64,000 nucleotides of DNA from Candidatus Poribacteria bacterium (lineage in GTDB: Bacteria > Poribacteria > WGA-4E > WGA-3G): the NCBI GenBank assembly GCA_965215265.1, contig OZ244048.1:576001-640000 (forward strand), in the 5' to 3' direction. A program made the translations under genes and the position numbers. Positions within the stretch are counted from its first letter, which is position 1, and the number at the start of each line of letters is the position of its first letter. The notes under the pieces are model-generated. The model made no database searches, was not told the origin of the DNA, and worked only from the letters and a program-made list of their open reading frames with translations. Positions 4,588 through 57,152 of this stretch are shown piece after piece.

Positions 4588-4643
4588 ATCTCATCGGATT
4601 AAAACACGGTTTATCGCTTAGATCGACAAAAAACTCTATTTCT

Positions 4644-7807: not shown

Positions 7808-7894
7808 TCCTTTTGTGCGGAATCATCAAGTAACTCAGATAAAGGTATAGGCCCAAAAATCTCTGCCGGGTTACGCCACGGGGCGTTTCTGCCA

Positions 7895-8464: not shown

Positions 8465-8488
8465 TTTTCACAAAGGTTTTAAAAATTG

Positions 8489-9391
8489 CTACGGGTATGC
8501 AACACGGAATCCGATGACGAATTCAGCGTATCCCGTGCTAAAAAAATCGTAACTGGTGCAGGTACTATAGTCGTGGTTGTAGTACCAGGCACCGCCGCAA
8601 GCCACCCGAAATTGCTCCTTATCATCATAAGGGGTGCCTGTCCATTCCCAGACATTGCCGAGCATGTCGTAGCAGCCGAAGGGACTGATACCGTCAGGAA
8701 ACGCGCCAACAGGAGTCGTCCCCCCGGCTCCAAGTTCTGCCGTGTTGCACCGCGGTTTGTCAATTTCATTGCCCCATGGAAACAGTCTATCATCATTCCC
8801 ACGTGCGGCGTACTGCCACTCTGGAAACGTGGGTAATCTACCACCGGCATAACGGGAATACATTTCCGCATTTTCGCATGTCACCCAAACAACCGGATGG
8901 TCACCCTTATTCTCCGGGTAGCTCCCATTAATCCAATCTGGAGGTGGTTCACTGCCAGTGTCCTGAACGAACTGATAGTAGTGCGCGTTCGTCACCGGAT
9001 AGACACTCATCTCAAATTTGTCAATCTCCAAAGGTGCACATTCTTCACCAATGCGTGCTGTTCCGCTAGGAATACGAACGGTTGCAGTTAGCACCTTCAG
9101 TGCTGCATTGCGAACCTGTTTATCCGGATGCCCAAGTGCGTAACCGAGCGGTGAGATAATTTCCCCAACCGGTGGCGTTGTCAAAATTGGCCTCTTCTCC
9201 CAACCGAGTTCCATGCTTAACAGTAGAAGCACCGCATCAGATAGCGATTCCTCAAAGTGCCACAACCAATAATCAGAGAGTAGTTGCTGCAACGCTTCTG
9301 TATCACCACGTTCAGTACGCGCAAGGCGGGATGCCTTTGCCTTTGAGATATTGAGAATATTTTGGCTTGGAATGTTATTCAAAACTGCCAT
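8489..9391 (-). CDS. Formylglycine-generating enzyme (FGE/SUMF1) domain protein
   Basis: PVTNAHY, HPVVWV, RLPTFPEWQYAARG, FPWG, DMLGNVWEW, GFRVA. Confidence 0.9.
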   Translation of the reverse strand: MAVLNNIPSQNILNISKAKASRLARTERGDTEALQQLLSDYWLWHFEESLSDAVLLLLSMELGWEKRPILTTPPVGEIISPLGYALGHPDKQVRNAALKVLTATVRIPSGTARIGEECAPLEIDKFEMSVYPVTNAHYYQFVQDTGSEPPPDWINGSYPENKGDHPVVWVTCENAEMYSRYAGGRLPTFPEWQYAARGNDDRLFPWGNEIDKPRCNTAELGAGGTTPVGAFPDGISPFGCYDMLGNVWEWTGTPYDDKEQFRVACGGAWYYNHDYSTCTSYDFFSTGYAEFVIGFRVAYP

Positions 9392-9440
9392 TTTATTATA
9401 TTATATCATAAAAAAAGAATTTTGTGCAAGGTATTTTTCT

Positions 9441-9777
9441 ATTGTCACTTACCCCTTTTTTTTGAGAGTAGTCTGTGTGTGATATTGTTAGGTTTATCTG
9501 TGAGAAAAGTGGCAGGATAAGTATTCTTTATTTCTCCTTTCAGGAGAGATAAGATTACCTTTTAACTGCCACCCACTAGGCAGTGCTGTTGTGCCAACTC
9601 AGAATGGTTTTTTCAAAACGAGATTTCTAAATCCGAAGCCACTCTTTATATCTCGGAAGCCTTGTTCAATCTGCATGCGTCTGAGGTATTTTATCATAAA
9701 CCCACTGCTTTCCTCACGCTTTTCCAAACAAAAACCTTTCACCACAAACCTTCAAAAAAAATGGGGTTAGTGACAAT
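9441..9777 (-). mobile_element. Internally deleted IS4-family element (MITE-like)
   Basis: 15-bp imperfect TIRs (attgtcacttacccc at 9441; ggggttagtgacaat ending at 9777); minus strand 9641-9688 encodes YLRRMQIEQGFRDIKS, the IS4 Y-R-E-K motif. Confidence 0.75.
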
Positions 9778-9849
9778 GTGGTGACAATGGGCTTGCGATG
9801 GATGAAAATGACATTCAGGCATCACTCGATAATTGAACGCAATTCGCTA

Positions 9850-42227: not shown

Positions 42228-44165
42228 TTGTTGATAATAGATTATATGCGAACAAGTAGCTCTGTCTTAACTCGCGGTGTTACGGTAAAATCCGTTACAC
42301 TGGCACTCATTTTCATTCCGATTAACTGCTATTGGATTATGTATACGGAAATGGTCTGGTGGGGTCTTTTCCCCACTACCATGTCGCTCTTTTTCAATGC
42401 AGTCTTCTTTCTTTTTTGTATTACGCTTCTCAATCTACTGTTACGAAGATATATGCGGCAGTGGGCCCTGACACACGGCGAGCTGCTTGTCATCTATATC
42501 ATGCTTTGTATGGCGAGTGCGATTGCATCGCACGACCACGCGCAGGTGCTTATCCCTATGATCGGACACGTTTTTTGGTTTGACACCCCAGAAAACGAGT
42601 GGCGGGAGCTCCTCTATAGATACATGCCCGAGTGGGCAACAGTCCAAGATAAACAGATTCTCGAGGGGTTTTATGAAGGCGAAACCCCGTTTTACCAGAT
42701 AGAAATTTTGCAGGCCTGGCTTGGACCGACTTTGTGGTGGACAAGCTTTATTGTCGTGCTAGTGTTTGTCATGGCTTGCATCAACGTCATCCTCCGTAAG
42801 CAGTGGACAGAACGTGAGAAACTCGCCTATCCGATTATACAACTGCCCTTAGAAATGACCCGTGAGAGTGGTGCCAAATTTTTCCGGGGCGGCCCTTTTT
42901 GGACCGCCTTCGTGCTGGTTTCACTCCTCAATCTCATCAACGGCCTCAGTTACCTGTTCCCGACGATTCCGATTATCGGTGTGCGGTTTCGGAATATCAG
43001 TCACTTTTTCACCGACAAACCGTGGGACGCGATTGGCTGGACCCCGTTTTCTATCTATCCGTTCGTGATCGGGCTCGGGTTTTTCATGCCGTTAGACCTG
43101 TCCTTCTCGTGTTGGTTCTTTTACCTATTTCGCAAGATGCAACGTGTCGGCGGTGCGATACTGGGGGTACGAGGATTGCCGGGTTTCCCTTATGATAGGC
43201 AGCAGTCGCTGGGTGCCTATCTTGGACTCGCAATTTTCGCTGTATGGGCAAGCCGGAAATACCTACTTCAGGTCTTCAAGCAGGTGACAACTGGCCGCTC
43301 AAGTCTTGATGAATCAGTTGAACCGCTGCCCTATCGCATCGCTATTTTAGGAATTGTCTTGGGGGGCATCTATCTCGTCGCGTTTTCAGTGAAACTCGGG
43401 ATAAGCATTTCGCTCGGTATCGCCTTTTTTGTCATCTACTTTGCTCTCTCAATGGGCATTACGCGGATGCGAGTTGAATCTGGCGCACCTGCACACGATC
43501 TGCATTTCATGGGACCAGATTACGCGCTTCCGACGATCTTAGGCTCCCGTCGTATGGGTGGCGGCAATTTGACAGCGCTCTCTTTTTTATTTTTCTTTAA
43601 CCGTGCGCACCGCAGTCACCCGATGCCACATCAATTAGAAGGGTTTCAACTCGCCTCTCGCGCAGGATTTAACCCAAAACCGCTGTTCTGGGCAATGCTC
43701 CTCGCTGTTCTCGTCGGTTCGGTGGCCTCGTTCTGGGCATATTTACACGATGTCTACCAATTCGGCTCAGCAGGAAGTTTTGCGAGGCACCCGTTTAACC
43801 GGCTGCAACAGCAACTTAACTTCCCCACGGGTCCGAACATCCCTGAAGTGACATTTATGGGTATCGGGATGGGGTTCACATTTCTGCTAATGTTTTTACG
43901 GATGCGTTTCTTCTGGTGGCCCTTCCATGCGGTTGGGTATGCAGTTTCTGGAGCATCAGATTGGTGCATGAACTGGCTGTGGATATCTCTCCTGATTAGC
44001 ACGGTGGCGAAATGGCTGATTATCAAGCAAGGTGGTTTGCAGTTACATCGAAAGGCTGCACCGTTCTTTTTCGGCCTAATTCTCGGGGAATTTGTGGCGG
44101 GGAGTGTGTGGAGTTTTTACGGCATGGCGACAGAGACGCGAATTTTCCCCTTTAAGGATTGGTGA
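42228..44165 (+). CDS. Polytopic membrane protein, DUF6785/OPT-like putative transporter
   Basis: Many TM helices; LRKQWTEREKLAYPI.QLP, WWPFHAVGY, FF.GLILGE. Confidence 0.75.
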   Translation: MLIIDYMRTSSSVLTRGVTVKSVTLALIFIPINCYWIMYTEMVWWGLFPTTMSLFFNAVFFLFCITLLNLLLRRYMRQWALTHGELLVIYIMLCMASAIASHDHAQVLIPMIGHVFWFDTPENEWRELLYRYMPEWATVQDKQILEGFYEGETPFYQIEILQAWLGPTLWWTSFIVVLVFVMACINVILRKQWTEREKLAYPIIQLPLEMTRESGAKFFRGGPFWTAFVLVSLLNLINGLSYLFPTIPIIGVRFRNISHFFTDKPWDAIGWTPFSIYPFVIGLGFFMPLDLSFSCWFFYLFRKMQRVGGAILGVRGLPGFPYDRQQSLGAYLGLAIFAVWASRKYLLQVFKQVTTGRSSLDESVEPLPYRIAILGIVLGGIYLVAFSVKLGISISLGIAFFVIYFALSMGITRMRVESGAPAHDLHFMGPDYALPTILGSRRMGGGNLTALSFLFFFNRAHRSHPMPHQLEGFQLASRAGFNPKPLFWAMLLAVLVGSVASFWAYLHDVYQFGSAGSFARHPFNRLQQQLNFPTGPNIPEVTFMGIGMGFTFLLMFLRMRFFWWPFHAVGYAVSGASDWCMNWLWISLLISTVAKWLIIKQGGLQLHRKAAPFFFGLILGEFVAGSVWSFYGMATETRIFPFKDW

Positions 44166-44240
44166 GCTCCTTAAAGTGTTCTTGGTAACTTGTAGGTTGC
44201 CAAGATACCTTTCCCTTCGGGGGACTGGTTCGATTTCGTT

Positions 44241-46049
44241 TTAAGAAATTAAGGGGTTTTTCACCTTTTGTCTCGAATCCGGTGCGGTTGGAATGCAGGT
44301 CGCAATCTGATATGCGTATCCGTCGCGTTTCTGGATTTTGCGAAGTTGTTTGATATTGCCACCGACGCGATCGTCTCCGTCCCACGATTTTTTTACACGC
44401 AGTTTTTGAGGTTTTCCTTCAGATGTTTTATCAAACGAGTTGATATGTCCCACAACTTTCCCTTTGTGTGTGAGCATTTCGACCATATCCAGTTTTTGAA
44501 AACCGCCCGCGTGTTCAACACGCGTATAAGGTCGTTTGAATCCGGGCGCGGTCTGCTTTGTTTGGCAATTGCCTAAATCTCTGCGATGCCCGTATCCTAC
44601 TGCATGGATACCTAGCACAGAAAGCGGCATGTTTGGCAGTTTGACAACCCCTGCGACACACGCTGCATCATAGTAGTGTGTTTTTGGCAACCCCGCTTGT
44701 GAACGATGATATTTCGTTTTTCCACCGGTGCCACAGAAGACTTCAAGCCCCGTCGCTTTTAGCGTCTCTACAATCTTCCAACGAATCGTGTTGACTGCGG
44801 CAGCATCCTTTAGCGGTTTTTTGGCAGCTGCTGATGCTTTTTTCACACGTTCCGCAAAATCTTTACCATGTTCCTCTTCATTTATCTCATCAGGGTGTAG
44901 GTTACCTTTTTTGGTATTACACGGGCCACATGACAATGTCAGGTTATCCACACGGTTTGTACCTCCTTTCGCTTTCGGGATAATATGCTCTATTTCGAGA
45001 GGCACGTTCTTTTCCTTGCAATAATAACATTTCCGACCGAACTTCTCAAGTAGGTATTCCCGTATTTCATATCCTTGAAGTTTACCCTGTTGGTATTCCT
45101 CTCCCGATATTTTAGAGTTATCCATCAGTTGCATATCAAACTTCACGTGTTCAACTGCTAGCTTTTTGATAGGATAAAGCTTTGAAAGCCTGTTCACCCA
45201 TGTCGCGATATTATAGATACGTGACATCAAGGATGGTGCTACCCAACCATTATCGGGGTTCTCTTCTTTTTCGATAAAAGAAAAATATAATTGCGGTTCT
45301 TCACGGCGGTTGCGCTTTTGGGCGTTGCTATATTCACGTTTTAAGACACGCCGCCACCTTTTCTTTACAGAATGCTTTTTCGGGCTATAGGTGTACACCT
45401 TTTTTGGATAACGCTTTTTATACTGCTTATGTGCCTCGTTATTGCTATTATAGCGATAATATTTACCTCCTTTTTCATAGTAAATATCGCCAGTACGCAT
45501 GCGTTTCCCGTTGGCGTAATAGAGCCGTGTCTTCTCTCTATGTTTTGCAGGCGAAGGGCGTAACCGCGTCCACTCGTAACGCTTATCTTTCAGCATGGCA
45601 TCGCTGACACGATGGAATGTGTTTTCCGTTTTCCGGGTATTCTTGACTTTTTCATATATCCACTGCCCGTTTACAAGGCGAGGACTCTGACGAGAACGGT
45701 TATCAAATCGGGGGGCACGGTGACGACAGTTCCGAGTCCGCCTACTCCGACGATGCCCGCTTCTATCCGACAACGCTTTCTTAATGCTTTTCCGGTGATG
45801 CAACTCAAAAAAAGCAACGACGGTGTTCTCTGAATCTGTAATCGCCATGCCAGTGCATTTTGAGCCAGGGTCAATTGAGAGGGTATAGTCGCCTGTTTGT
45901 GACTCAGGCACCTCAAGTTTCAAGATAATGGTGAATGGATAACGTTTGTAGACCGCAGCCTTCTCCTCGCGAAGTAAACGCCTCGCAACAGCAGGATGGC
46001 ACGGTTCTAATACGCGTTTCTTTGTATCTAATACAGGAACTTTTGACAT
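44241..46049 (-). CDS. iscB: Enlarged RNA-guided endonuclease IscB (CRISPR-associated)
   Basis: PLMP/RRXRR-like N-terminus (VLEPCHPAVARRLL..YPFTIIL); RuvC-I SIDPGSK; bridge helix RSGHRRSRRTR..RFDNR; GWVAPSL; RuvC-II VEHVKFD; HNH CYYC..EHIIP..GGTN..NL..CGPCN; RuvC-III THYYDA. Confidence 0.95.
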   Translation of the reverse strand: MSKVPVLDTKKRVLEPCHPAVARRLLREEKAAVYKRYPFTIILKLEVPESQTGDYTLSIDPGSKCTGMAITDSENTVVAFFELHHRKSIKKALSDRSGHRRSRRTRNCRHRAPRFDNRSRQSPRLVNGQWIYEKVKNTRKTENTFHRVSDAMLKDKRYEWTRLRPSPAKHREKTRLYYANGKRMRTGDIYYEKGGKYYRYNSNNEAHKQYKKRYPKKVYTYSPKKHSVKKRWRRVLKREYSNAQKRNRREEPQLYFSFIEKEENPDNGWVAPSLMSRIYNIATWVNRLSKLYPIKKLAVEHVKFDMQLMDNSKISGEEYQQGKLQGYEIREYLLEKFGRKCYYCKEKNVPLEIEHIIPKAKGGTNRVDNLTLSCGPCNTKKGNLHPDEINEEEHGKDFAERVKKASAAAKKPLKDAAAVNTIRWKIVETLKATGLEVFCGTGGKTKYHRSQAGLPKTHYYDAACVAGVVKLPNMPLSVLGIHAVGYGHRRDLGNCQTKQTAPGFKRPYTRVEHAGGFQKLDMVEMLTHKGKVVGHINSFDKTSEGKPQKLRVKKSWDGDDRVGGNIKQLRKIQKRDGYAYQIATCIPTAPDSRQKVKNPLIS

Positions 46050-46054
46050 AATGT

Positions 46055-46256
46055 CCTCTACTTTCGCAAGTAGGTAATGTAAGCCTCGATAATGTTAGTA
46101 TCGCTTTTGGGTCAAGGTTGACTGCGTATTGTACAGCTGTTTACAGAGCCTCCACAGAGCCTCAGACTGGCTTATGTATCCAAGGGTGTGATAACGAAAC
46201 TAACGTAGTTAAAAACTAAATCTTGATTACACTGTAGCCTACTTTTGTGTCGCAAC
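46055..46256 (-). ncRNA. omegaRNA scaffold with 5' CRISPR anti-repeat (tracr-omegaRNA)
   Basis: Minus strand: anti-repeat GTTGCGACACAAAAGTAGGCTACAGTGTAATC (46225-46256), then omegaRNA/HEARO-like blocks ACTACGTT, ACCCTTGGAT, CCAGTCTGAGGCTCTGTG, GTAAACAG, ACATTATCGAGG, TTACC, ending just before the iscB start. Ends approximate. Confidence 0.85.
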
Positions 46257-46260
46257 TTTT

Positions 46261-46350
46261 GCCGTCAACCTCCCAATAAAAATACATTATTGGGGGTCGA
46301 CTGCAAACTCTTCACGCTGGAGCTATACGCTCACTGCGTTCTCACATAGC
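46261..46350 (+). promoter_or_regulatory. Putative CRISPR acquisition leader with inverted repeat
   Basis: gtcaacctcccaataa...ttattgggggtcgac inverted repeat (46264-46301) about 50 bp before the first perfect repeat; the degenerate repeat is at the opposite end. Confidence 0.55.
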
Positions 46351-48177
46351 GTTGCAACCTAAGCAAGCTACAGCGTAAACTCAAAATATGCTACAATACT
46401 AATATCAATTAAGAAGTTGCAACCTAAGCAAGCTACAGCGTAAACGCGTTAAGAGCGTTCGGATTCGTTGTCAAACAAATGTTGCAACCTAAGCAAGCTA
46501 CAGCGTAAACCAGGCAGCATATAACAAGTTCGCACTGTTATCAGATAGTTGCAACCTAAGCAAGCTACAGCGTAAACGAAGCCCTTTTCATACTAACAGA
46601 TGAAAGCAAACGGGTTGCAACCTAAGCAAGCTACAGCGTAAACGTATTCTATGATATGCCAACCGTGGATGCGGTTTGTGTTGCAACCTAAGCAAGCTAC
46701 AGCGTAAACTGCTACGAGGTTTTTCATATTGAAAGCATGACGCAGGTTGCAACCTAAGCAAGCTACAGCGTAAACTAAACCGAATGCTATGACTACTAAC
46801 GTCATGCCAGCGTTGCAACCTAAGCAAGCTACAGCGTAAACTACGTACGATCCACTGTGCATACGTCTGCCCAGGGATCGTTGCAACCTAAGCAAGCTAC
46901 AGCGTAAACGAGGGTTACCTTTTCTGAAATCATTTCATCCCCCCAATGGTTGCAACCTAAGCAAGCTACAGCGTAAACTGAAGCCCTTTTCATACTAACA
47001 GATGAAAGCAAACGGTTGCAACCTAAGCAAGCTACAGCGTAAACAGTAACCCAATCAGCCAGCTGCAGCACACACTGCAGCGTTGCAACCTAAGCAAGCT
47101 ACAGCGTAAACTATTACACAAGCGCGTTGGGAGAGCAAACTGAAAGAGTTGCAACCTAAGCAAGCTACAGCGTAAACTTGATTGAGTATCTCAACTTCAT
47201 TCGTTGGCCATACAGTTGCAACCTAAGCAAGCTACAGCGTAAACACAGAAGCGTCGCCTGATGAAATCCGTAAGGTCCAAAGTTGCAACCTAAGCAAGCT
47301 ACAGCGTAAACCGCGTCCTCGAAAGGATCCACGGTGAATCTGCTCTGGTTGCAACCTAAGCAAGCTACAGCGTAAACTGCTCTCTTTCTGCTCTTATAGC
47401 ATCGACTGTGTCTGTGTTGCAACCTAAGCAAGCTACAGCGTAAACTTAGATATGCAAATGAAAGCTGGCATGCTTGATTCTAAGTTGCAACCTAAGCAAG
47501 CTACAGCGTAAACTTTACGATTTTGAGAACTGTCGGCTGGTATCATGAACGTTGCAACCTAAGCAAGCTACAGCGTAAACCTCGCTACGTCAACCCCGAC
47601 GGCACGCAATGTCTCTGGTTGCAACCTAAGCAAGCTACAGCGTAAACCTTGCAAGGATATTCTCATTAAATTCACTTATTGGAGTTGCAACCTAAGCAAG
47701 CTACAGCGTAAACATGTAGGATATGAGATTGCCTGCTTCGTGTGCCTCGTTGCAACCTAAGCAAGCTACAGCGTAAACTACTTCAATGTTTCGATCGGTT
47801 CGTATCCTGCGGCCTGTTGCAACCTAAGCAAGCTACAGCGTAAACATCGGAAAGGGGGATACGCTGAAGTTGACAGAACACGTTGCAACCTAAGCAAGCT
47901 ACAGCGTAAACATGAAAAAGATTTTTCATCTCAACCGTCCTTTTGAAAGTTGCAACCTAAGCAAGCTACAGCGTAAACTTACTGTAGTATCCTTCGATTT
48001 CCGCAACTTCTGCCGTTGCAACCTAAGCAAGCTACAGCGTAAACTCTTTTGACTTTACCGTATCCTTGTGTCCGTTTTTTAGTTGCAACCTAAGCAAGCT
48101 ACAGCGTAAACGCATTACGCCCAACCCACACAAGCAACGATTCTGACGCTGTAACATAAGCAGGCTACCACGTAAAC
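46351..48177 (-). CRISPR. CRISPR array: 28 repeats (27 identical plus 1 degenerate), 27 spacers of 35-39 bp
   Basis: 30-bp repeat, plus strand GTTGCAACCTAAGCAAGCTACAGCGTAAAC; terminal copy 48148-48177 has 6 mismatches. Minus-strand expression is inferred from the promoter and anti-repeat wobble pairs. Confidence 0.99.
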
Positions 48178-48179
48178 AT

Positions 48180-48208
48180 ATTATATCTTAACTTGCAAAA
48201 AAAGTCAA
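48180..48208 (-). promoter_or_regulatory. sigma70 promoter pointing into the array toward iscB
   Basis: Minus strand TTGACT (48203-48208), 17-bp spacer, TATAAT (48180-48185); predicted TSS inside the degenerate repeat. Confidence 0.8.
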
Positions 48209-48222
48209 GTTAAAGTTGCAGC

Positions 48223-48301
48223 CTCTCATTTACCCCCATTTTTTTTGAAGGTTTGTGGTGAAAGGTTTTTGTTTAGAAATGTGTGAGAAAAGCAGTGGGT
48301 T
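48223..48301 (+). mobile_element. Solo degenerate end of the IS4-like element
   Basis: 48234-48301 closely matches the reverse complement of 9699-9766 (ccccattttttttgaaggtttgtggtgaaaggtttttg...gcagtgggtt). Confidence 0.7.
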
Positions 48302-48555
48302 AGAGATACCCGAACCGGGTAAATCCCACATCTCTGATAACCCGTTTTCAAGACACCTTCAAGGCTTCTGGGACCTCCGCCCCTAGCCCGATGCCACCGG
48401 CACCGAAGACAGCAGCCCTCTGCTTGCAGGGAGACATGAGGTTACCATCAAAAATCTAAAAAAAGAGTGACTTTTTTTCCCATCTGTGTTATACTTCTTT
48501 GCGAGCCAAGTGGCAAACTGGAAAAATGCAGCTTGCGGCAGGCAGGTAAAAAACG

Positions 48556-48633
48556 ATGAAAAAGAATTTCACTACCATTCGGCTCTGGGATGTCAACACA
48601 GGCGAACCCCTCAAAACTCTCATGTCTGTCTAA
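48556..48633 (+). pseudogene. WD40-protein gene remnant (25 aa)
   Basis: MKKNFTTIRLWDVNTGEPLKTLMSV*; TIRLWDVNTGEPLKTL is a typical WD40 junction. Confidence 0.55.
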
Positions 48634-49727
48634 GTGTGCAAGGCTTGTAGGAACGCTTCAAAACTGGGTGTCTCAACGGCGATGAGATGCAGCTGCTTGA
48701 GCCGCACCAGGTCTGGTATGGCTTCAAGGTGCGGTTGAGTCGTCTGCACGTCGCTCTGCGGGAACCGTGCGGTGAGCACCGTGATGACGTTTTCTATCGC
48801 ATTCCGGCGTGCACCTTGTTCAATGCCTTGCTCAATGCCTTGTTTGAGTCCTTGTTGCACCAGGACTTCTGCCATTGTCTCTGCCATCTGTTTTACCTCC
48901 ATCTTATCTTCTGCGAGTTGCTCCACTAATGCGACTAAGCCACTTTGTTCTGATAGCGGCCGACGATGCAAGATGAGTAGCAGGAAATAGACTATCGCCT
49001 CACGCCGCTGTTCGGCACCAACCGTATCAAACTCATCAAGGTGTGCTATCGCCGTGCGTAACGCATCCCGTATCTCCGCCTCGTCTGCTCTCTCTTTTTG
49101 CAGCACCGTCAAAAGCCACCCGAACGGATGATGCGTTTGAGTCAGTGTGGCGACATCGGTTTGCTTCACGCTCAAAAACAGCGTCTCAAAGGCAGGAACG
49201 AACCGGGCGAGTTCAGCAGGGATGTCCATCAGTGCCTCAAGTGTCAGCGGGGTTTTCCACTGCTGCTCGCCGGTATAAAACACAATCGGCAGTATCGGGG
49301 GCAACCGCCGCGCCGGTTTGGGCACCTTGTCGTGTTCCCATTGCCTGCGATGTGCGTCCCAAATCAGCATCATATAAAACAGCACCCGAAACCCCATCGT
49401 CGCATCCACCGTCGATTGATGTTCGACGAGCAGATAGATGAGCAGCGCCTCGGTGGCTGTCTCGGTTCTAAACGGGACGCGGAACACGCTATCCGCTTCC
49501 TGCTCCCGCAGCACTTCCGGCAGCAGGCTTCTCGGGAGTGGAACGAGTTGGCTAAAATCTATGCGTTCTGCGATGTCAGCGGCGACGATTTCTAGCACAC
49601 CCCGGACGTTTTCGCCGTTTTGTAGCAAGCGCCGCACACTTCTGTCGGCGAAGTGTTCAACGCGTCCATCAAGCAGCGCGCGGATATGCTGCATCTGCGT
49701 ATCCACGGCTTTGGTTTCTTGCGTCAT
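48630..49727 (-). CDS. Rpn/YhgA-like PD-(D/E)XK protein
   Basis: EADSVFRV, IYLLVEHQS, FRVLFYM, LPPILPIVFYTG..W; C-terminal QGIEQGIEQG repeats. Confidence 0.9.
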   Translation of the reverse strand: MTQETKAVDTQMQHIRALLDGRVEHFADRSVRRLLQNGENVRGVLEIVAADIAERIDFSQLVPLPRSLLPEVLREQEADSVFRVPFRTETATEALLIYLLVEHQSTVDATMGFRVLFYMMLIWDAHRRQWEHDKVPKPARRLPPILPIVFYTGEQQWKTPLTLEALMDIPAELARFVPAFETLFLSVKQTDVATLTQTHHPFGWLLTVLQKERADEAEIRDALRTAIAHLDEFDTVGAEQRREAIVYFLLLILHRRPLSEQSGLVALVEQLAEDKMEVKQMAETMAEVLVQQGLKQGIEQGIEQGARRNAIENVITVLTARFPQSDVQTTQPHLEAIPDLVRLKQLHLIAVETPSFEAFLQALHT

Positions 49728-49910
49728 TTCTCTCCTCAGTGCCGGGGGCCTGCCATTCGGGCAGCCCGCCGGTAAAAAGCGGTGAAGACTTAACTCAAAT
49801 TATACTACTTTTGGCAGTAAAGATGCCACCCTTTTTTTTCTGGCGATTTCGTTTTCGCTTCTGACAGCGGAGGTTGTGGACTAAAAAAAGCAAAAACCGC
49901 TCACTTTTCC

Positions 49911-49976: not shown

Positions 49977-52900
49977 ATGCGAACACCAAAACAGAAACTC
50001 CAAACGCTTCTCCAACAACTCTTCCGTACCGATGCCGCCGAACTCGACTTCGGCATCTACCGCATCATTAACTACCGCCGCAACCAAATCCAAAACTTTA
50101 TAGATACCGAGCTCCCCACCCTCATCAACGACGCGCTCCACGCAGACACACACGCAGAAAATGCACACCAACAGATAGAAACCCTCGCAAAACAGATACA
50201 ACAAACCCTCGGCGACACCGTCTTAGACGCAGACGGAAACCTGCTCAACGAGAACTTCAGACAAGCCCCACTTGTCCAGCAATACCTCACCGCAAAACAA
50301 CAACTCGGCACCCCCAGAACCCAAACCGAGCGCGCCGATGCCGTTTTCAATCACCTCTACACCTTTTTCTCACGCTACTACGAAAATGGCGACTTCCTCC
50401 CACGCAGACGCTACACGCAAACCCAACGATACGCCATCCCGTATAACGGCGAAGAAGTCTACCTCCACTGGGCAAACCGAGAACAATACTACGTCAAAAG
50501 CGGAGAGCATTTCACCGGTTACACGTTCAAAGCCGAAGCGATTACTGTCACCTTCTCGCTCCGCACCATAGACATAGAAAAGGACAACGTCAAAGGCGCG
50601 AAACGCTTCTTCATTCCGCTCTCTGCCGAAACGCAGTATCGCCCGGAAACCAAGCAGCTGGAGCTCCCGTTTGAACATCGTCCGCTCACTGATGCGGAAA
50701 AGAAGCGCTACGGCAAGCAGAAACAACAAGAGAAAATCCTGGATGCCGCTGAACCTGAAATCCTAGCAAACCTGAGCGCTCACTATGAAGTGCTGTCTGC
50801 CCTAGAGCGCCGCACGGATGAACTAAGCACGCTGAAGAAACACCTGCGCACCTACACGCGCCGCAACACGTCGGACTTCTTCATCCACAAGGCGCTGAAG
50901 CGATTCCTGACGCGTGAGTTAGATGTATATCTAAAAAACGAGGTTATCCCTCTGTCTGGCTTTATACTTAACACATATCAAGGGGGGGGGCGGTACGGGC
51001 AAATGGAAACGGCCCCACGCCGCCACCTTGGCTTGAAACCGCACAACTCGTTCACCGCATCGCCACACAACTCATCCACTTCCTCGCTGACATAGAAGAC
51101 TTTCAGAAACGCCTCTGGCTCAAAAAGAAATTCGTCCTCTCTACCGACTACTGCCTCACGCTCGACCGGGTCCCGGAAGCGTTCTACCCCGAAATCGCTC
51201 ACAACCGCGCACAACGCGAGGCGTGGCAGCACCTCTTCGCCATTGAGGATATCGCAGGCCACCTCATCAACACCGACTATTCTGAGCCGCTCACGGTGGC
51301 ATTCCTCCAGCAAAACCCGAACCTCGTTCTGGATACCTGTCACTTCGACGCAGACTTCAAAGACCGGCTGCTGGCACACTTCGACGAACTGGATGCCCAA
51401 ACCGATGGACTGCTCATTCATGGAGAGAATTTCCAAGCGTTAAACCTCCTCACCGCGAAATACCGAGACACCGTGAAAGCCATCTACATAGATCCGCCCT
51501 ATAACACCAAAGGCTCCCCAATTTTGTATAAGAATGACTATAAAGATTCATCATGGATGTCTCTCATGGCTGACCGAATTGCTATTTCCCGGGAGTTATT
51601 AACAAACAACGGTACCTTCTGTGCCGCCATTGATGAAGTGGAAGCTCCTAACCTTTGGCAGCTTCTCCAACAGCTATTTGGCAAAGAAAATGAACTTGGG
51701 GTTGCAGTGGTCTGTACAAACATATCCGGGGTCACAACACCTAAGAGACTCGCTGCATGTCACGAATATGCCATGTTCTTCGGCAAGAAACCTGACGTAA
51801 AGGTCGGACATGTTAAATGGACGGAAAAACAACTCAAAAACTATAAAGATATTGACAATCAAGGCCGCCGTTTCAGATGGGTAAATCTCAGGAATGATGC
51901 CGGAGGCCCTAATAAACTGCGGGAAAACAGCCCGCGTATGTTCTACCCGCTTTTCGTGAGCGATCAGAACATACGCATTCCGAAAATTGAGTGGGATGAA
52001 GAAGCTAGGCAGTGGCAACTATTAGAATCCCCTACCCCGAATGAAACAGAAGTATTACCGATTCAGCCAAATGGAAATGAAGTGACATGGCAATACTCGA
52101 TAGAACGGGTGGAGGCGATGTTATCATCATCCGAACTGTATGCGAGAAAAGATAAAAATGGGAATATCCGAATCCGCTTAAAGTGGTTCCTAAAAGAGGA
52201 GGGTATATTGCCAAAAACATGGTGGGATAAAAATGTATACGCTGCTGGTAGATATGGAACGACTTTTCTCACAGATATGTTCAGCGACAATTTTGCATTT
52301 CCATATCCGAAGTCCATCTATCTCGTAGAGGATTGCCTCCGCGTCTCTTCGCTGGGTAAAAACGATACTGTCTTAGACTACTTCGCAGGTTCTGGCACCA
52401 CCGCCCACGCCACCATCAACCTGAACCGCCAAGACAACGGCAACCGAAAATATATTCTCGTAGAAATGGGACACCACTTCAACACCGCTCTCAAACCCCG
52501 GCTCCTCAAAGCCATATACGCACAAAACTGGAAACACGCAAAACCCACATCACGCCAAAGCAAACTCTCACACCTCTTCAAATACCAACGCATAGAATCC
52601 TACGAAGATACACTCAACAACATCCAGTTCAAAACACACCAAAATCCGCTCTTTCAAGAACCGATGCTACGCTATCTGTTAGGAAACGAAACCCATGAGA
52701 GCCCAACGCTGCTCAACATTGAGAAGCTCCAAACCCCATTTCACTATCAACTCAACATCGTCACCGGGCTAAACACACAAACACAAACCATAGACATTCC
52801 GGAAACCTTCAACTACCTGCTTGGGCTCACCGTCAAAACCCGGCGCGTCTTCTACGATAAAGCCAGACGCTACCTCGTCTACCGTGGCACTCTCCAGGCG

Positions 52901-53092
52901 AAGAGCGTCACGATTATCTGGCGAGAGACGCACGGCTGGCAACCGGAAGATTGGGAAAGAGACTCTCGTTTTATTCAACACCATAAACTCACGGAACACG
53001 CAGACACGCTCTATGTGAACACCGACAGCATCGTCCCCGAGGCAAAAGCGTTGGACGTGCTCTTCAAACAGTTAATGTTCACCGAACCGTGA
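49977..53092 (+). CDS. mod: Type III R-M methyltransferase (Mod), frameshifted at a G9 tract
   Basis: LDFGIYRI, YNGEEV.LHWAN, DFFIHK in the first frame; IEDFQK.LW.KKKFV, YIDPPYNT, YPKS, DYFAGSGTT in the second frame, open from 50972; G9 at 50982-50990. Confidence 0.85.
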
Positions 53093-53218
53093 ACCGGCGG
53101 GCGCGAAAATGTTACCGGTTCCGCCTTTTTTTGGGGGGGGGAAATATGAGAGAAAACGCCTCTGCACCTATACAGGGCGTGCGTTATCAACTAGATGCAA
53201 CATGTTACCAAAAACAGA

Positions 53219-53244
53219 AAAACGTTACCAAACGGTAACGTTTT
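53219..53244. promoter_or_regulatory. Perfect inverted repeat (operator or hairpin)
   Basis: aaaacgttacc-aaac-ggtaacgtttt just before the RBS of 53261; extra gttacc half-sites upstream. Confidence 0.4.
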
Positions 53245-53260
53245 AAGGAGAAATAAAAAG

Positions 53261-53998
53261 ATGAAATTCAAAGAAAAACACAAGCAATTCGCCGTCAAAT
53301 GCTACGCGCGATTTATGAAACGCTCTGATGTCCTTGCGGCATTCATGTCAGAATTTTTTCACGATGTATTGCAGCCACACCTCGAAGAAAGCCTTGAAGA
53401 GAACGCCTCGGTGGAGCTTATAGAAAAAGCGGCCGATTTATTCAAGGCATTAAACATGCGAATAGAAGCCACGGAGAAAAGAATGGAGTCGTGGAATCTC
53501 CCCCCAGAGTCGGATATCACCAGCGCCGACGTAATCACCAGCTTGGCATCCTATTTTGGAAACCCAGGACTGCCTAAGGAATTTATGATCACAGTCACCA
53601 AAAAACTCTCAGAGCAACTTCGCAGGTTCGACATTACCCATCGCCAATTTCCTAAAAAATACGAGACACTGTTTTACGAAACCCGCAGAGACTTTTGTGC
53701 CAGCTACAACGATGCCAACCTGCAAAACGCAGATAACATCGCTACGGAATTGAACAACCTCTACGGCTACACCAAACAACTCGCCTTTCAAGAAGAAGAA
53801 CCGGAAAAGGCCATAAAACACGTGAACCTCGCACACCAACTCCTCAAAACCCTGATTACCTACAAAGCACTCAACGCAGAGCAAAACCTCGTAGATGTCA
53901 CCCCCGGAACCGCAAAAGACATGATAGGAGCTCCGAAACATTTAACGCAACAATTAGAGAAGAACGCAGAAACAACAAACGGGAAACAACCGTCATGA
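53261..53998 (+). CDS. Hypothetical protein, weakly DUF2280-like
   Basis: AGGAG RBS; KQFAVKCYARF and KKYETLFYETRRDF resemble DUF2280 segments from memory. Confidence 0.55.
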   Translation: MKFKEKHKQFAVKCYARFMKRSDVLAAFMSEFFHDVLQPHLEESLEENASVELIEKAADLFKALNMRIEATEKRMESWNLPPESDITSADVITSLASYFGNPGLPKEFMITVTKKLSEQLRRFDITHRQFPKKYETLFYETRRDFCASYNDANLQNADNIATELNNLYGYTKQLAFQEEEPEKAIKHVNLAHQLLKTLITYKALNAEQNLVDVTPGTAKDMIGAPKHLTQQLEKNAETTNGKQPS

Positions 53999-54035
53999 GT
54001 GTCCGAACAGCCCCTATTGTCTTTCGCTAAAGCAA

Positions 54036-57000
54036 ATGTCTACTTTTCAAGGAATTCGCACTATGTCCAAACCTCGCAGCCTAGAAACCGAGCTCCTCCG
54101 CCACGCCTGGCTCAATCACAACTTCGGCTACAACACCACCGGCGAGCTGCTCCACGCCATGAAAAACGAAGCGGAACGCCTCAGCCAAGACGGACACGCC
54201 GCCCTCACTGAAGCGCTCCGCGCACGCGCCACACCGCCAATCGCAGACGCACTCCCAACCTACGATGCCAACATCCAACGCCACCTCAATGCCATCAACC
54301 GCACCCGAATCCAACCCATCCGCCTCCGCTATTTCCAATACCTCGCACTCCTCTACACCGAAATCTGCCTCGATTGGACATTGAATAAACGCACCGCCTT
54401 CTTGCACCACCTCAACGCCTTCGTCCAACAACGCAACGCCGACAAAGCCCCCGGCGAACCCCAACACGCCCGCTTCACCGACGCAGAACTCGATAAACTC
54501 GCCTTCTGGATGGCGACAGGGGCAGGCAAAACCCTCATTCTCCACATCAACTACCACCAGTTCCGACACTACTGCCAAACCCCGTTGGATGACATTCTGC
54601 TCATCACGCCCAACGAGGCTTTGAGCGAACAACACCGGCGCGAACTCGCAAACTCTGACATCCCCGCAGAACGCTTCCAAATGCACCGAAACCGCATCGC
54701 ACACACACACAACGCCATACAGATACTCGAAATCACAAAACTCGTCATCCAAAAAACAGGAGAAGGCGACACCATACCCGTTGAGGCGTTTGAGGGCAAC
54801 AACCTTATTTTCGTTGATGAGGGACACAAAGGCACCGGCGGAGATGTCTGGCGCCACCTTCGCCAACAACTCGCCCAGACAGGCTTCACCTTTGAATACA
54901 GCGCCACCTTCGGACAAGCGCTCGCCGCCGCAAAAAACCGAGAACGCGTTGAGGAATACGGCAAAGCCATCGTCTTCGACTATTCATACCGCCACTTTTA
55001 CGCAGACGGCTACGGAAAAGACTTCCGCATCCTCAACCTCAAACACGACGAACACACCCAAACCGAGACGCTCCTCCTCGCCAATCTCCTCGCTTTCTAC
55101 CAACAGCACCACTACTTCACACACAACCGAGACATCGCACACACCTATGGATTAGACGCACCCCTCTGGGCGTTCGTCGGCAGCAAAGTCAACGCCGTCT
55201 ATACCGAAAAGCACACAAAACGCTCCGATGTCCTCACCGTCCTCCGATTCCTCCACCGATTCCTAAAAAACCCGCACAACTGGGCCATCCGCACCCTCGC
55301 CAAAATCCTGAATGGAGAGAGCGGGCTCACCGATGAAAACGGCACCGATGTCTTCGCCAACCAATTCCCTCTGCTCTCTCAACTTCACAAAACCCCAGCC
55401 GACATATACACCGCCATCCTCACAGAAGTCTTCCATACCGATACCCATGGCGCACTGCATCTCTCTCACATCCGAAACGCACCCGGCGAAATCGCACTCA
55501 AAGCCACACACGGCCGCCAGAACTTCGGACTGCTCTACATCGGCGATACCGCTTCCTTCAAAAAACTCGTTGAAACCGATGATGCCGCCATCGTCTTCGA
55601 CACCGATAATCTCATCACGGAGAGCCTTTTCACCCACATCAACACGCCCACGAGCCCCATCAATCTCCTCATCGGCGCCAAAAAGTTCATAGAGGGCTGG
55701 GACAGCTGGCGTGTCACCGCCATGGGACTGCTCAACATCGGCAGGCAAGAAGGCGCACAAATCATACAACTCTTCGGGCGCGGAGTGCGCCTGCGCGGCA
55801 AACAGATGAGCCTAAAACGCAGCAGCGCCCTCGACGGCGAACATCCACCCCATCTCCGGCTATTGGAAACCCTCAACATCTTCGCCGTCCGGGCAAACTT
55901 CATGGCACAATTCCGAGAATACCTCACCCGTGAAGGTATCCCTGCAGAAGAACCTGTCCACATAGAAATCCCCATCAAACCCAACAAAGATTGGCTACAG
56001 GCACCGCTGTTTGTCCCAGAAGTCCCAGCCTACCGCGACGACGCGAAAGACACCTGCGTGCCCTTAGCCGTCAACCCAGGCATCTATATCACCCATCGCA
56101 CCCAAACCGTTGAAATCCTACAAAGTCGCAACACCGAAAGCATACAAGACAGCACCGCACAACCCGCCATAACCCACGCACACATCCCACACGACAGCCT
56201 CAACCTCCTCAACTGGGAAGCAATCTACCTCCAACTCATCGAATACAAACAGCAAAAGCAGTATCACAATCTCATCTTCGATACCCCCACCCTCAAACGC
56301 ATCATCGCCCCAGACGCTGGCACCTATCAACTCGCCATCAGAGACGAAACTGACATCATACCCACGTCTCTCACAGAACTCGCCCGGGTAGAGCAACTCG
56401 TCCTCACACTGCTCCGCAAGTATCTCACCAAATTCTACGGCACCATCCAGAAACGGTGGAGTGAGCATCGCATCCGCCTCCGCATCTTAGACGAAAAAGA
56501 CACGAACTTCACCAACTGGCGCGTCGCCATCTCCCAAAACAACGCACAGGAACTGGTGCCGCACCTCACAGCCCTCATAGAGGCTGGCACCATCTACGGC
56601 CCCGACTTCACCGCGCTACCCACCGCCTATAACGAATGCCACCTCTACCAACCCCTCCTCGCCGAGGACAACCGCACCATAGAACGCACCACCCCACCCC
56701 CTTTGAACGCAAGCGAAAAAGCGTTTGTCGAAGATATGCACCGCTACATCCGAAAACATCACAACAGAAAACAGATTGTCCTCTTACGCAACCACAGCCG
56801 AGGCAAAGGCATCGGATTCTATCAAAACCACGGATTCTACCCCGACTTCATCCTCTGGATGCTTCACGACGGCAAACAACGCATCGTCTTCATTGAACCG
56901 CACGGCCTGATGCATGAAGCCATCAACCCACACAACCACAAAATCACGCTATTCAAAACACTCCGCCACATCAGCGATACACGGTTCCGCAGGCAGCCCG

Positions 57001-57152
57001 TCGAAATGGATGCCTATATCATCTCCAGCACCGATTTCACACAGATGCAGAAAAAATGCGGACTCGACAAACTGACTTTCGAGCAGTGGCATATCCTTTT
57101 CCCAAACCCTACCGATACCACATACCTCGAACCAATTTTCAGACAGACGTAA
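54036..57152 (+). CDS. res: Type III restriction subunit (Res), SF2 helicase plus nuclease
   Basis: FWMATGAGKT, VDEGH, EYSATF, QLFGRGVRLRG, C-terminal FYPDFILW..FIEPHG. Confidence 0.92.
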   Translation: MSTFQGIRTMSKPRSLETELLRHAWLNHNFGYNTTGELLHAMKNEAERLSQDGHAALTEALRARATPPIADALPTYDANIQRHLNAINRTRIQPIRLRYFQYLALLYTEICLDWTLNKRTAFLHHLNAFVQQRNADKAPGEPQHARFTDAELDKLAFWMATGAGKTLILHINYHQFRHYCQTPLDDILLITPNEALSEQHRRELANSDIPAERFQMHRNRIAHTHNAIQILEITKLVIQKTGEGDTIPVEAFEGNNLIFVDEGHKGTGGDVWRHLRQQLAQTGFTFEYSATFGQALAAAKNRERVEEYGKAIVFDYSYRHFYADGYGKDFRILNLKHDEHTQTETLLLANLLAFYQQHHYFTHNRDIAHTYGLDAPLWAFVGSKVNAVYTEKHTKRSDVLTVLRFLHRFLKNPHNWAIRTLAKILNGESGLTDENGTDVFANQFPLLSQLHKTPADIYTAILTEVFHTDTHGALHLSHIRNAPGEIALKATHGRQNFGLLYIGDTASFKKLVETDDAAIVFDTDNLITESLFTHINTPTSPINLLIGAKKFIEGWDSWRVTAMGLLNIGRQEGAQIIQLFGRGVRLRGKQMSLKRSSALDGEHPPHLRLLETLNIFAVRANFMAQFREYLTREGIPAEEPVHIEIPIKPNKDWLQAPLFVPEVPAYRDDAKDTCVPLAVNPGIYITHRTQTVEILQSRNTESIQDSTAQPAITHAHIPHDSLNLLNWEAIYLQLIEYKQQKQYHNLIFDTPTLKRIIAPDAGTYQLAIRDETDIIPTSLTELARVEQLVLTLLRKYLTKFYGTIQKRWSEHRIRLRILDEKDTNFTNWRVAISQNNAQELVPHLTALIEAGTIYGPDFTALPTAYNECHLYQPLLAEDNRTIERTTPPPLNASEKAFVEDMHRYIRKHHNRKQIVLLRNHSRGKGIGFYQNHGFYPDFILWMLHDGKQRIVFIEPHGLMHEAINPHNHKITLFKTLRHISDTRFRRQPVEMDAYIISSTDFTQMQKKCGLDKLTFEQWHILFPNPTDTTYLEPIFRQT

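Follow-up and report, generated by a model that had tools for sequence, protein, structure and literature searches.

How does an IscB nuclease come by a filled CRISPR array when no adaptation genes lie beside it? This question is raised by a Poribacteria locus within a 64-kb window (the whole stretch of DNA analyzed here, C1:576001-640000). In the portions of the literature on CRISPR-associated IscBs available to us, no explanation was found for the spacer supply of arrays without cas1-cas2. The locus is composed as follows, in positions of the window:

44241..46049, minus strand: iscB, an open reading frame of 602 aa with an N-terminal RRXRR/PLMP-type domain, RuvC, an arginine-rich bridge helix, HNH and a C-terminal TAM-interaction region
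45252..45641, minus strand: insertion of ~130 aa at the REC position of IscB
46074..46224, minus strand: omegaRNA scaffold, a tracr-like body that stops just short of the iscB start codon and is the strongly aligned part of the HEARO match
46225..46256, minus strand: anti-repeat, able to pair with the minus-strand reading of the repeat
46259..46306, plus strand: leader-type hairpin, TTGCC-GTCAACCTCCC...GGGGGTCGAC-TGCAA
46307..46350, plus strand: remaining part of the leader-like gap; its last five letters, ATAGC (46346-46350), adjoin the first repeat
46351..48177, minus strand: CRISPR array, 28 repeats (30 nt each) separated by 27 spacers that represent 26 distinct protospacers
46578..46613, minus strand: spacer 4, derived from the protospacer that also gave spacer 10 (46979-47014), with a 1-nt offset
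47045..47081, plus strand: spacer 11, identical in 36 of 37 nt to I-B array spacer 96 (C1:530608-530644)
48148..48177, minus strand: degenerate terminal repeat with six mismatches, at the iscB-distal, promoter end
48180..48208, minus strand: sigma-70-like promoter TTGACT-17-TATAAT, oriented so that transcription would cross the array before the omegaRNA and iscB

A sequence-only reading of the window had proposed most of this anatomy, and its description was borne out. The minus-strand promoter and 27-spacer array lie where it had placed them, the gap from the proximal repeat to the anti-repeat (46350-46257) is exactly 94 nt, the anti-repeat (46256-46225) lies within the omegaRNA-type match at 46074-46301, and the 602-aa minus-strand frame (44241-46049) carries Pfam RRXRR and HNH.

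Sequence analysis of the 602-aa protein identified RRXRR (9.2e-57) and HNH (3.3e-12), together with HNH_5 and HNH_4. As in other IscBs, a PLMP/RRXRR N-terminal domain is combined with a split RuvC that holds an inserted HNH, and with an arginine-rich bridge helix. Among PDB sequences, IscB chains rank best, including TbaIscB (9.7e-36) and OgeuIscB (1.5e-22), and the top-ranked Foldseek structures are likewise IscBs (4e-21 to 1e-12). Each of the RuvC and HNH residues that had been described as intact (D60, E300, H355, N378, H458 and D461) is either invariant or conserved in no fewer than 90% of 58 homologues; by analogy with the family, these are the presumed catalytic positions. The insertion at the REC position is complete in 8 of the 14 rows of alignment A1 and absent from four. 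An AF2 model predicts it to be partly folded, with pLDDT of 80-91 at residues ~180-220 and below 50 at 242-269, and an Atlas search with it gave no informative look-alike (best score 0.85). IscBs with REC-position insertions have already been published, and the accessible text ties the insertion to longer effective guides (PMC13180657). The Cas9 model TIGR01865 reaches only 24.6 bits against a cut-off of 100, over the HNH part only; the protein thus lacks a Cas9-level score, and at its REC position holds only the partly folded ~130 aa. In both the sequence and the fold comparison, the solved structures closest to it are IscBs, which supports its assignment as an IscB, not a Cas9.

Directly upstream of iscB, on the same strand, the Rfam model HEARO (RF02033) aligns to 46074-46301 over model positions 1-211 of 211 (E 1.7e-14). 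The score of 75.6 bits falls below the gathering score of 83, which is passed by the relatives L026 (83.4 bits) and L053 (83.3 bits). The segment 46074-46380 folds at -105 kcal/mol (z -5.68), as good a fold being found in 0 of 100 shuffles, and its MFE structure has almost all of the repeat base-paired with the anti-repeat. Ten further Poribacteria loci carry a homologous 30-nt repeat. Across ten related loci, 82.6% of repeat/anti-repeat cells are paired, compared with 27-42% when the partner is slid, and 9 of the 37 pairs changed on both sides. This covariation supports the predicted use of crRNA together with a tracr-like omegaRNA, as the sequence-only reading had claimed. With an array beside iscB and the anti-repeat within an omegaRNA-like RNA, the locus has the arrangement of a CRISPR-associated IscB. 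The layout recurs at the ten other loci, and, counting the window, 8 of 11 loci have an anti-repeat that starts 93-95 nt past the final repeat.

The array holds 27 perfect repeats and one degenerate copy, with spacers of 35-39 nt. Searching the 4.83-Mb genome for the repeat gave 27 forward and 0 reverse matches, with none in controls and no copy outside the array. The promoter at 48208-48180 matches 11 of 12 consensus positions and is the best of eight promoter-like sites in 44000-48700, a region for which shuffled sequence gives a mean of 5.8 such sites. By eye, the L024 and L026 arrays have comparable TTGCAA-17-TATACT boxes at their distal ends. The promoter is near-consensus and, a point that the sequence-only reading had missed, sits at the old, degenerate end of the array: across the 11 arrays, the distal-most repeat is degenerate in seven, and no proximal-most repeat differs from the chosen consensus by more than one mismatch. 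The 1-nt offset between spacers 4 and 10 indicates two acquisitions rather than a duplication. Spacer content varies among all related genomes, and in run X6 a variant strain carries a repeat-spacer-repeat unit whose spacer is absent from the window (joint 46645>46414).

Analysis of the whole genome revealed a type I-B/III-A locus about 98 kb from the window locus, with cas6, csm1-5, cas8b1, cas7, cas5, cas3, cas4, cas1b and cas2, followed by an array of 170 repeats of 30 nt with a variant repeat at its trailer end. The genome has cas1/cas2 copies at C1:522674-523963 and C1:1468327-1469595. None was found within the window, and the locus thus has no cas1-cas2 of its own, the nearest being the I-B type ~98 kb off. 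That tnpA, cas1, cas2 and cas9 are missing from the window, as the sequence-only reading had noted, agrees with these searches, with the TIGR01865 score and with a genome-wide search for Y1 TnpA (PF01797) that found none. Having the window alone, that reading had missed the I-B cas4-cas1-cas2 module and the leader-type hairpin in the gap.

Several features connect the two arrays. Both have 30-nt repeats and spacers of about 36-37 nt. Spacer lengths are 36.6 ± 1.0 nt in the IscB array and 36.7 ± 1.3 nt in the I-B array (Mann-Whitney p 0.58); those of the array linked to RT-Cas1, 37.9 ± 2.0 nt, differ from the IscB array (p 0.003). One of the 27 spacers is common to both arrays: spacer 11 and I-B spacer 96 coincide at both ends and point the same way with respect to their repeats, the match was also found by an independent search, and its chance expectation is ~5e-17. 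Furthermore, the hairpin pattern occurs twice in the genome, at 46259-46306 and in the I-B array leader (C1:524128-524165). As CCGTCRACCTCC...GGAGGTCGACNGCAA, it precedes the first repeat of each array and faces the repeats the same way in both. Among 111 family genomes, the pattern CCTCC-N14-28-GGTCGACNGCAA gave 28 matches in 23 genomes, against two control matches. Twenty-two sit 73-87 nt upstream of I-B arrays and three sit 44 nt upstream of IscB arrays; the remaining three adjoin no array, one of them being the same hairpin on the other strand. In one genome, the I-B leader L089 and the IscB flank L053 have 26 of 26 nt in common. ATAGC or ATAGG closes the flank in 9 of 11 IscB arrays, while ATAGC closes three of four I-B leaders and AAAGC the fourth. 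Across the family, the hairpin is typical of the leaders of type I-B arrays, and the junction motif is common to these leaders and the IscB flanks. The IscB array differs from a genuine I-B array in its repeat, which by eye matches the I-B repeat CTTTTAATCG...GAAAC in no more than 15 of its 30 positions, and in its transcription. An I-B leader carries a promoter reading away from it; here the promoter lies at the opposite end and on the opposite strand, and no promoter-like site was found on the plus strand beside the array, from 45890 to 48466.

The anatomy of the locus, the covariation, the leader homology, the shared spacer, the matching spacer lengths and the array polarity enable us to propose a putative model. 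The system is probably a domesticated, single-copy CRISPR-associated IscB, whose array is loaded in trans by the I-B Cas4-Cas1-Cas2 and read antisense towards the omegaRNA. Minus-strand transcription would start at the promoter 48208-48180, each unit reading 5'-spacer-repeat-3'. The repeat would then pair with the anti-repeat at the 5' side of the omegaRNA-type scaffold. Processing of the RNA in the Cas9 style is not to be assumed, since searches with PF14622, PF00636 and TIGR02191 turned up no RNase III, TIGR02191 yielding only a 23.9-bit dsRBD-like match. The IscB-RNA complex may cut matching DNA beside a 3' TAM by means of RuvC and HNH. The array would be filled not by IscB but by the Cas4-Cas1-Cas2 of the co-resident type I-B system, through an I-B-type leader that has kept the hairpin and ATAGC junction without the I-B promoter. 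Because this leader lies at the iscB-proximal end, new spacers are expected to enter there, immediately before the repeat that lies in cis to the anti-repeat, and each acquisition would therefore rewrite the guide of a natural single-guide omegaRNA. Since the array is antisense to the I-B array, the I-B PAM, 5' of the protospacer, would come to stand physically at the TAM position of IscB, presumably 3' of the guide-identical strand.

More tentatively, we suggest how this arrangement arose: an I-B array unit may have been captured head-to-head against an omegaRNA, such that Cas4-Cas1-Cas2 inserts spacers at the cis guide position and antisense reading turns the I-B PAM into an IscB TAM. The locus would then be a living example of a transposon nuclease becoming an adaptive class 2 effector by way of a class 1 adaptation module. 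Loading by the I-B proteins has to be weighed against the single shared spacer, the 15/30 repeat agreement, the hairpin distance of 44 nt compared with 73-87 nt in I-B leaders, and the points below from related genomes, from the protospacer search and from the HEARO alignment of the hairpin.

Alternatively, the array may be a relic, an I-B leader-repeat piece captured once in which loading has ceased, leaving frozen guides, or the proximal cis guide only, for defense against old targets or for a host function. We regard this as unlikely, although it accounts for several observations. The protospacer search suggested by the sequence-only reading found none with the array spacers. In three other genomes, 0 of 56 IscB-array spacers match the genome's own I-B array over full length, with one partial match of 17 nt, and the relatives L018, L019 and L020 have arrays of only one or two repeats. 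I-B-like cas1 is present in all five genomes holding the six arrays of at least 13 repeats and in two of five with arrays of 4-9 repeats, three genomes thus keeping short IscB arrays without an intact I-B-like cas1; because the genomes are kin, these counts are not independent. Against a relic stand the 27 of 28 perfectly conserved repeats, the spacer content that differs in every related genome and in the variant strain, and the 1-nt-shifted double acquisition, which together with the spacer shared with an active-looking 170-repeat I-B array points to fairly recent loading.

It is still less probable that the hairpin belongs to the omegaRNA, as the left end of an IS200/605-type element, and passed from IscB elements to the I-B leaders of the family, the IscB array having grown otherwise, by another Cas1 or by guide-adaptor duplication of the kind put forward for how type II arrays arose. 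The hairpin could be derived from an omegaRNA or IS end because Rfam aligns it, at low posterior, as the 5' part of HEARO, to the 5' CCCC/GGGG stem, both here and in L053; arrays have also been proposed to derive from omegaRNAs, in the text accessible to us (PMC10691335, PMC9581776). The hairpin nevertheless keeps a fixed distance in 22 I-B leaders, several in genomes without an IscB match (G003, G004, G008, G011, G017 and G027, at E<=1e-30), and the second leader motif co-occurs at the junction. Moreover, the omegaRNA of L021, a relative without an array, has no hairpin, the HEARO match of L026 begins at the anti-repeat and not at the hairpin, and the spacer lengths fit I-B, not the RT-Cas1 array.

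An ordinary mobile OMEGA element, with IscB and omegaRNA serving transposon retention or homing and the array an unrelated neighbor, is highly improbable: IscB is typically IS-borne and the locus borders, at 48225, on a Transposase_31 element present in multiple copies, but with no PF01797 match and one iscB copy in the genome there is no sign of carriage by an IS200/IS605-type element, and both the covariation and the recurring 93-95-nt geometry speak against it. An assembly artefact joining array to iscB, the misjoin between 46050 and 46350 considered by the sequence-only reading, can be dismissed, since contigs of three runs bridge the join with 0 differences (X1 record 1, 44279-46377; X2 record 9, 44241-46380; X4 record 17, 44241-46377) and ten other genomes share the layout.

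For trans loading of the IscB array by the I-B proteins, the signals open to testing are the hairpin and junction motif of an I-B leader at the array end nearer iscB, the matching repeat and spacer lengths, the shared spacer and the reversed transcription. If it holds, the spacer supply is explained, the TAM is predicted to be the reverse complement of the host I-B PAM, and the locus offers a system in which the initial step from OMEGA towards CRISPR could be studied by experiment. If the capture of an I-B unit holds as well, it would provide a direct path from IscB to Cas9, open to testing, in which a class 1 adaptation module was used before one was owned. Of the two origins that the sequence-only reading had offered, an IscB-to-Cas9 intermediate or an independent parallel one, the first found no backing, as no evidence here places this protein on the line to Cas9.

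That reading had left it in doubt whether the clade was already described. CRISPR-associated IscB as a type is already described, judging from the available parts of the sources: it was reported by Altae-Tran 2021, as quoted in PMC10691335, PMC10734277 and PMC11610941, and one member, DelIscB, has been characterized and engineered as an editor (PMC12660989). For DelIscB only, TAM-dependent DNA cleavage with array-derived guides has been demonstrated (PMC12660989). The present system shares with it and other CasIscBs an IscB effector preceded by an array, the fusion of the anti-repeat to a scaffold resembling omegaRNA, and a locus without adaptation genes, and the ~100 nt removed between repeat and anti-repeat to build the DelIscB sgRNA (PMC12660989) fits the repeat-94 nt-anti-repeat layout. 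By description it differs from DelIscB in its size (602 aa vs 457 aa), ~130-aa REC-position insertion and 27 spacers, and from CasIscBs in its I-B-type leader and in having a spacer in common with the I-B array of its own genome, features of which no mention was found in the literature portions available. In practical terms, it would add a RuvC/HNH effector to the compact ones known, one of 602 aa that naturally has a crRNA/tracr layout and carries an insertion at the REC position.

With canonical OMEGA IscB (OgeuIscB, PDB 7XHT/7UTN), the system has the protein fold and HEARO-type scaffold in common; here, however, the CRISPR repeat supplies the ascending strand of the guide-adaptor stem, and iscB is single-copy without a transposase. 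A crRNA:tracrRNA-type duplex, RuvC and HNH, and a REC-position insertion are shared with type II Cas9 (II-D Cas9d, II-C), and the array upstream of the effector is shared with II-D, according to the accessible text of PMC10691335. Unlike type II, it scores 24.6 bits vs a cut-off of 100 with the Cas9 model, has II-D structures below IscBs in its fold ranking, retains a full omegaRNA scaffold and lacks its own cas1-cas2. Effector and array without adaptation genes, these being present elsewhere in the genome, are also found in effector-only loci served in trans. Type III effectors using type I arrays are one such case, with adaptation provided by another system. Loci of the Cas12f branch without cas1/2/4 have been described as well, in the part of PMC10691335 available. 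In contrast to such loci, the IscB array has its own repeat and the donor's leader hairpin, and reads opposite to the donor's arrays.

The open reading frame on the minus strand of the window encodes an IscB, and the features assigned to its locus are as follows.

44241-46049, minus strand: iscB open reading frame, 602 aa, matching Pfam RRXRR (9.2e-57) and three HNH models
46074-46301, minus strand: HEARO (omegaRNA), matched by Rfam over all 211 model positions (E 1.7e-14; 75.6 bits, slightly below the gathering score of 83)
46256-46225, minus strand: anti-repeat, exactly 94 nt off the proximal repeat
48148-48177: the one degenerate repeat of the array, which otherwise has 27 perfect 30-nt repeats, with 27 spacers of 35-39 nt
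48208-48180, minus strand: promoter-like site TTGACT-17-TATAAT, 11 of 12 consensus positions, the best in the region

The promoter, 27-spacer array, 94-nt gap, anti-repeat fused to an omegaRNA scaffold and iscB, all proposed in a sequence-only reading, were thus borne out, positions included. The degenerate repeat comes straight after the promoter-like site, and the array repeat is confined to this locus in the genome (4.83 Mb, single contig). In the predicted fold of 46074-46380 (-105 kcal/mol, z -5.7), the repeat is paired with the anti-repeat over almost its full length. A misjoin between 46050 and 46350, raised earlier as a risk, is excluded, as contigs of three sequencing runs span this interval with no differences. 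In the sequencing run X6, contigs of 54-84 nt cover the omegaRNA, the hairpin within the gap (46259-46306, plus strand) and the proximal repeat (window 46085-46379) at word depths of about 3,000-10,500, and a contig over iscB has a depth of 42.8; the library kind of X6 is not recorded, and these depths are not taken as evidence of expression. The loose ends of the short contigs resemble what we take to be Illumina adapter sequence.

The earlier class assignment agrees with the Pfam matches and with two further comparisons. In the sequence comparison, TbaIscB (9.7e-36) and OgeuIscB-type IscBs (about 1e-22) are the closest of the solved chains, with type II-D Cas9 chains ranking after them (4e-12 to 6e-10). 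A Foldseek search with the AlphaFold2 model of the protein (mean pLDDT 75.8, pTM 0.67) likewise placed IscB complexes first (4e-21 to 1e-12) and II-D Cas9 next (about 1e-10 to 1e-11). Compared with ~470-aa relatives about 70% identical elsewhere, the protein has a ~130-aa insertion (residues ~137-266), present in full in eight rows of a 14-row alignment and missing from four. This insertion is modeled confidently only in part, and its comparison with the ESM Atlas was uninformative (top score 0.85). IscBs with insertions at the REC position are already described in the available text of PMC13180657.

Among the best 120 of 7459 proteins with E<=0.001, the closest homologue is 66% identical, and several of the 120 listed carry the name Candidatus Poribacteria. 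A search of one genome per species yielded 45 related loci. The array-IscB layout of the window recurs in ten Poribacteria loci. At each of the ten, a 30-nt repeat that is homologous and reads GTTxxCGCT...GTTGCAAC in the iscB sense is present in 4-26 copies, and the anti-repeat starts 93-95 nt past the last repeat in 8 of 11 loci with the window counted. In a 10-locus alignment, 82.6% of the repeat/anti-repeat and hairpin cells are paired, versus 27%-42% with the partner slid by 1-3 columns, and both sides have changed in 9 of the 37 pairs. Other related loci have mini-arrays of one (L018, L020) or two repeats (L019), and L021 and L048 are without such an array. At L018:2267-2343, about 3.7 kb upstream of the IscB relative in this Poribacteria MAG, RF00029 matches a group II intron domain (70.2 bits). 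Immediately downstream of an IscB relative without an upstream array, 11 repeats with a period of 72-73 nt form an array (L021:7466-8236).

The distribution of IscB is patchy, with a match at E<=1e-30 in 5 of 60 related genomes and none at this threshold in a same-genus genome. A quick tree of 41 chosen rows (22 of the 45 genome loci, the window protein and 18 of the 120 listed proteins, omitting partial ORFs and most ~470-aa near-duplicates) groups the window protein with the homologous protein P0002 (support 99); arrays are present in both main Poribacteria sub-clades, and L031 forms a long branch. Metagenomes contributed 80 loci at <=50% identity. The Poribacteria hairpin motif occurs in none of these 80, seven of which have short repeat arrays near iscB (L136, L141, L142, L155, L169, L172 and L183), in six cases no more than about 400 nt upstream.

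Two cas1-cas2 pairs are encoded in the genome, both outside the window.

C1:522.7-524.0 kb: first cas1-cas2 pair, in a block of cas6, type III-A (csm1-5) and type I-B genes (cas8b1, cas7, cas5, cas3, cas4, cas1b)
C1:1463325-1469595: second CRISPR locus, with cas1, cas2 and an array of 64 repeats, each 37 nt long

The I-B block, ~98 kb from the IscB locus, is followed by a 170-repeat array of 30-nt repeats. Viewed in the I-B orientation, the 94-nt gap resembles an I-B leader. Two sites in the genome carry the hairpin pattern CCTCC-N14-28-GGTCGACNGCAA, one in the I-B leader and the other in the gap. Across 111 family genomes it was found in 23, giving 28 matches versus 2 control matches: 22 sit 73-87 nt upstream of I-B-type arrays, three sit 44 nt upstream of IscB-type arrays, and three are without a nearby array, one being the same hairpin read on the opposite strand. 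At least six genomes with the hairpin have no IscB match at E<=1e-30. At the repeat junction, the leader ends in ATAGC or ATAGG in 9 of 11 IscB arrays, and the I-B leader in ATAGC in three of four cases and AAAGC in the fourth; in one genome, the I-B leader and the flank of the IscB array have 26 of 26 nt in common. In I-B leaders, a TTGACA-17-TATAAT promoter separates the hairpin from the repeat, a segment missing from IscB flanks. The iscB-distal end holds degenerate repeats in 7 of the 11 IscB arrays, and in none does the repeat nearest to iscB have more than one mismatch. Furthermore, an I-B-like cas1 is present in all five genomes holding the six arrays of at least 13 repeats and in two of five genomes with arrays of 4-9 repeats; as these genomes are kin, the co-occurrence is only suggestive.

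Spacer lengths are alike in the I-B and IscB arrays (36.7 +/- 1.3 vs 36.6 +/- 1.0 nt; Mann-Whitney p 0.58). The second locus has its cas1 within a 548-aa open frame, possibly an RT-Cas1 fusion; the RT-Cas1-type array, with its 37-nt repeats, has spacers of 37.9 +/- 2.0 nt, differing from the IscB array (p 0.003). IscB spacer 11 and I-B spacer 96 agree in 36 of 37 nt, with identical ends and the same orientation to the repeats; the match was recovered independently in a second search, and its chance expectation is about 5e-17. Given the different flanking repeats, simple recombination does not account for this match. Spacers 4 and 10 represent a single protospacer acquired twice with a 1-nt offset. 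At C1:3910350-3910760, intergenic hairpins (CCTGCTGCAGCACACACTGCAGCAGG) lie ahead of small genes; one of them agrees with I-B spacer 11 in 28 of 37 nt, and the 20-nt core of this match is also found in I-B spacer 96 and IscB spacer 11. These hairpins may represent a resident relative of the mobile element being targeted.

Taken together, the IscB array probably uses the leader of the co-resident class 1 system with reversed transcription, and probably its adaptation proteins as well. In the putative model, the I-B Cas4-Cas1-Cas2 would recognize the hairpin/ATAGC leader and extend the array at its iscB-proximal end by new repeat-spacer units, while the distal promoter would have the array read in antisense relative to the I-B direction. 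This would put the newest spacer immediately 5' of the repeat in cis with the anti-repeat, yielding a natural single guide, and older repeat-spacer units might pair in trans. The PAM of type I systems is located 5' of the protospacer, and the TAM of IscB/Cas9 3' of the guide-identical strand. Antisense reading would thus bring the I-B PAM side to the TAM side, with the TAM predicted to be the reverse complement of the I-B PAM. Against these steps, only a single spacer is shared, and replication failed in three other genomes (G061 0/25, G062 0/19 and G063 0/12 spacers, 0/56 in all); the IscB-array and I-B repeats coincide in just 15 of 30 positions; the hairpin-repeat spacing is 44 nt versus 73-87 nt in I-B leaders; and Rfam counts the hairpin within HEARO. 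Furthermore, no protospacer was found in the own genome (where the I-B array copy is the sole full-length spacer match outside the array), GenBank phages, IMG/VR (two exact spacer patterns), JGI metagenomes (one pattern) or 150 genomes of the same order (only two candidates scored per genome). Phage matches in 12 GenBank records (79.7% identity, E 0.2) were rejected as noise. Also against it, RNase III was undetected by PF14622, PF00636 and TIGR02191 in this single-contig genome, rated 95% complete, although its absence is not claimed. The sole match in that search was dsRBD-like (C1:2777-3004, 23.9 bits).

The value of the locus lies in evidence on a leader, and probably adaptation proteins, borrowed from a class 1 system, which makes spacer supply to a Cas9-ancestor nuclease directly testable. 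Altae-Tran 2021 (Science) is reportedly the founding paper on CRISPR-associated IscBs. The literature searched gave no account of IscB in Poribacteria; the content of that paper and its supplements lies outside the search and could bear on novelty. According to the available parts of PMC10691335 and PMC10734277, the association of IscB with CRISPR arrays arose several times independently, with which the arrays at 7 of 80 distant metagenome loci are consistent. The available text of PMC12660989 describes DelIscB (457 aa, TAM NAC), whose ncRNA includes repeat, spacer and anti-repeat and which was engineered for editing, and that of PMC13180657 uses the name 'CasIscBs'. As to whether this clade is already described, which the sequence-only reading left undecided, its kind is therefore not new: the class of CRISPR-associated IscBs is already known from the available text of these four sources.

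The IscB locus is located in a variable ~15-kb stretch together with a type III restriction-modification-like pair.

48225-49900: multi-copy element of about 1.65 kb, with a YhgA/Rpn-like Transposase_31 gene at 48630-49727
49977-57152: type III restriction-modification-like module
51296-53092: N6_N4 methylase, 598-aa ORF
54036-57152: ResIII helicase (ResIII/SNF2), 1038 aa

A 372-aa ORF with no Pfam match runs straight into the methylase ORF, so the two may form a single split gene; next come a 267-aa ORF and the helicase. This module and the IscB locus form a small defence island. In the same-genus genome G001, the flanks of the locus are 0.55 Mb apart, in opposite orientations and not syntenic, leaving no clean empty site. 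The Transposase_31 element adjoins the IscB locus, starting 16 nt upstream of the -35 box of the array promoter, and the contigs of three runs part at exactly 48224/48225; it has at least eight further genomic copies at 94%-99% identity and many end fragments of ~140 nt.
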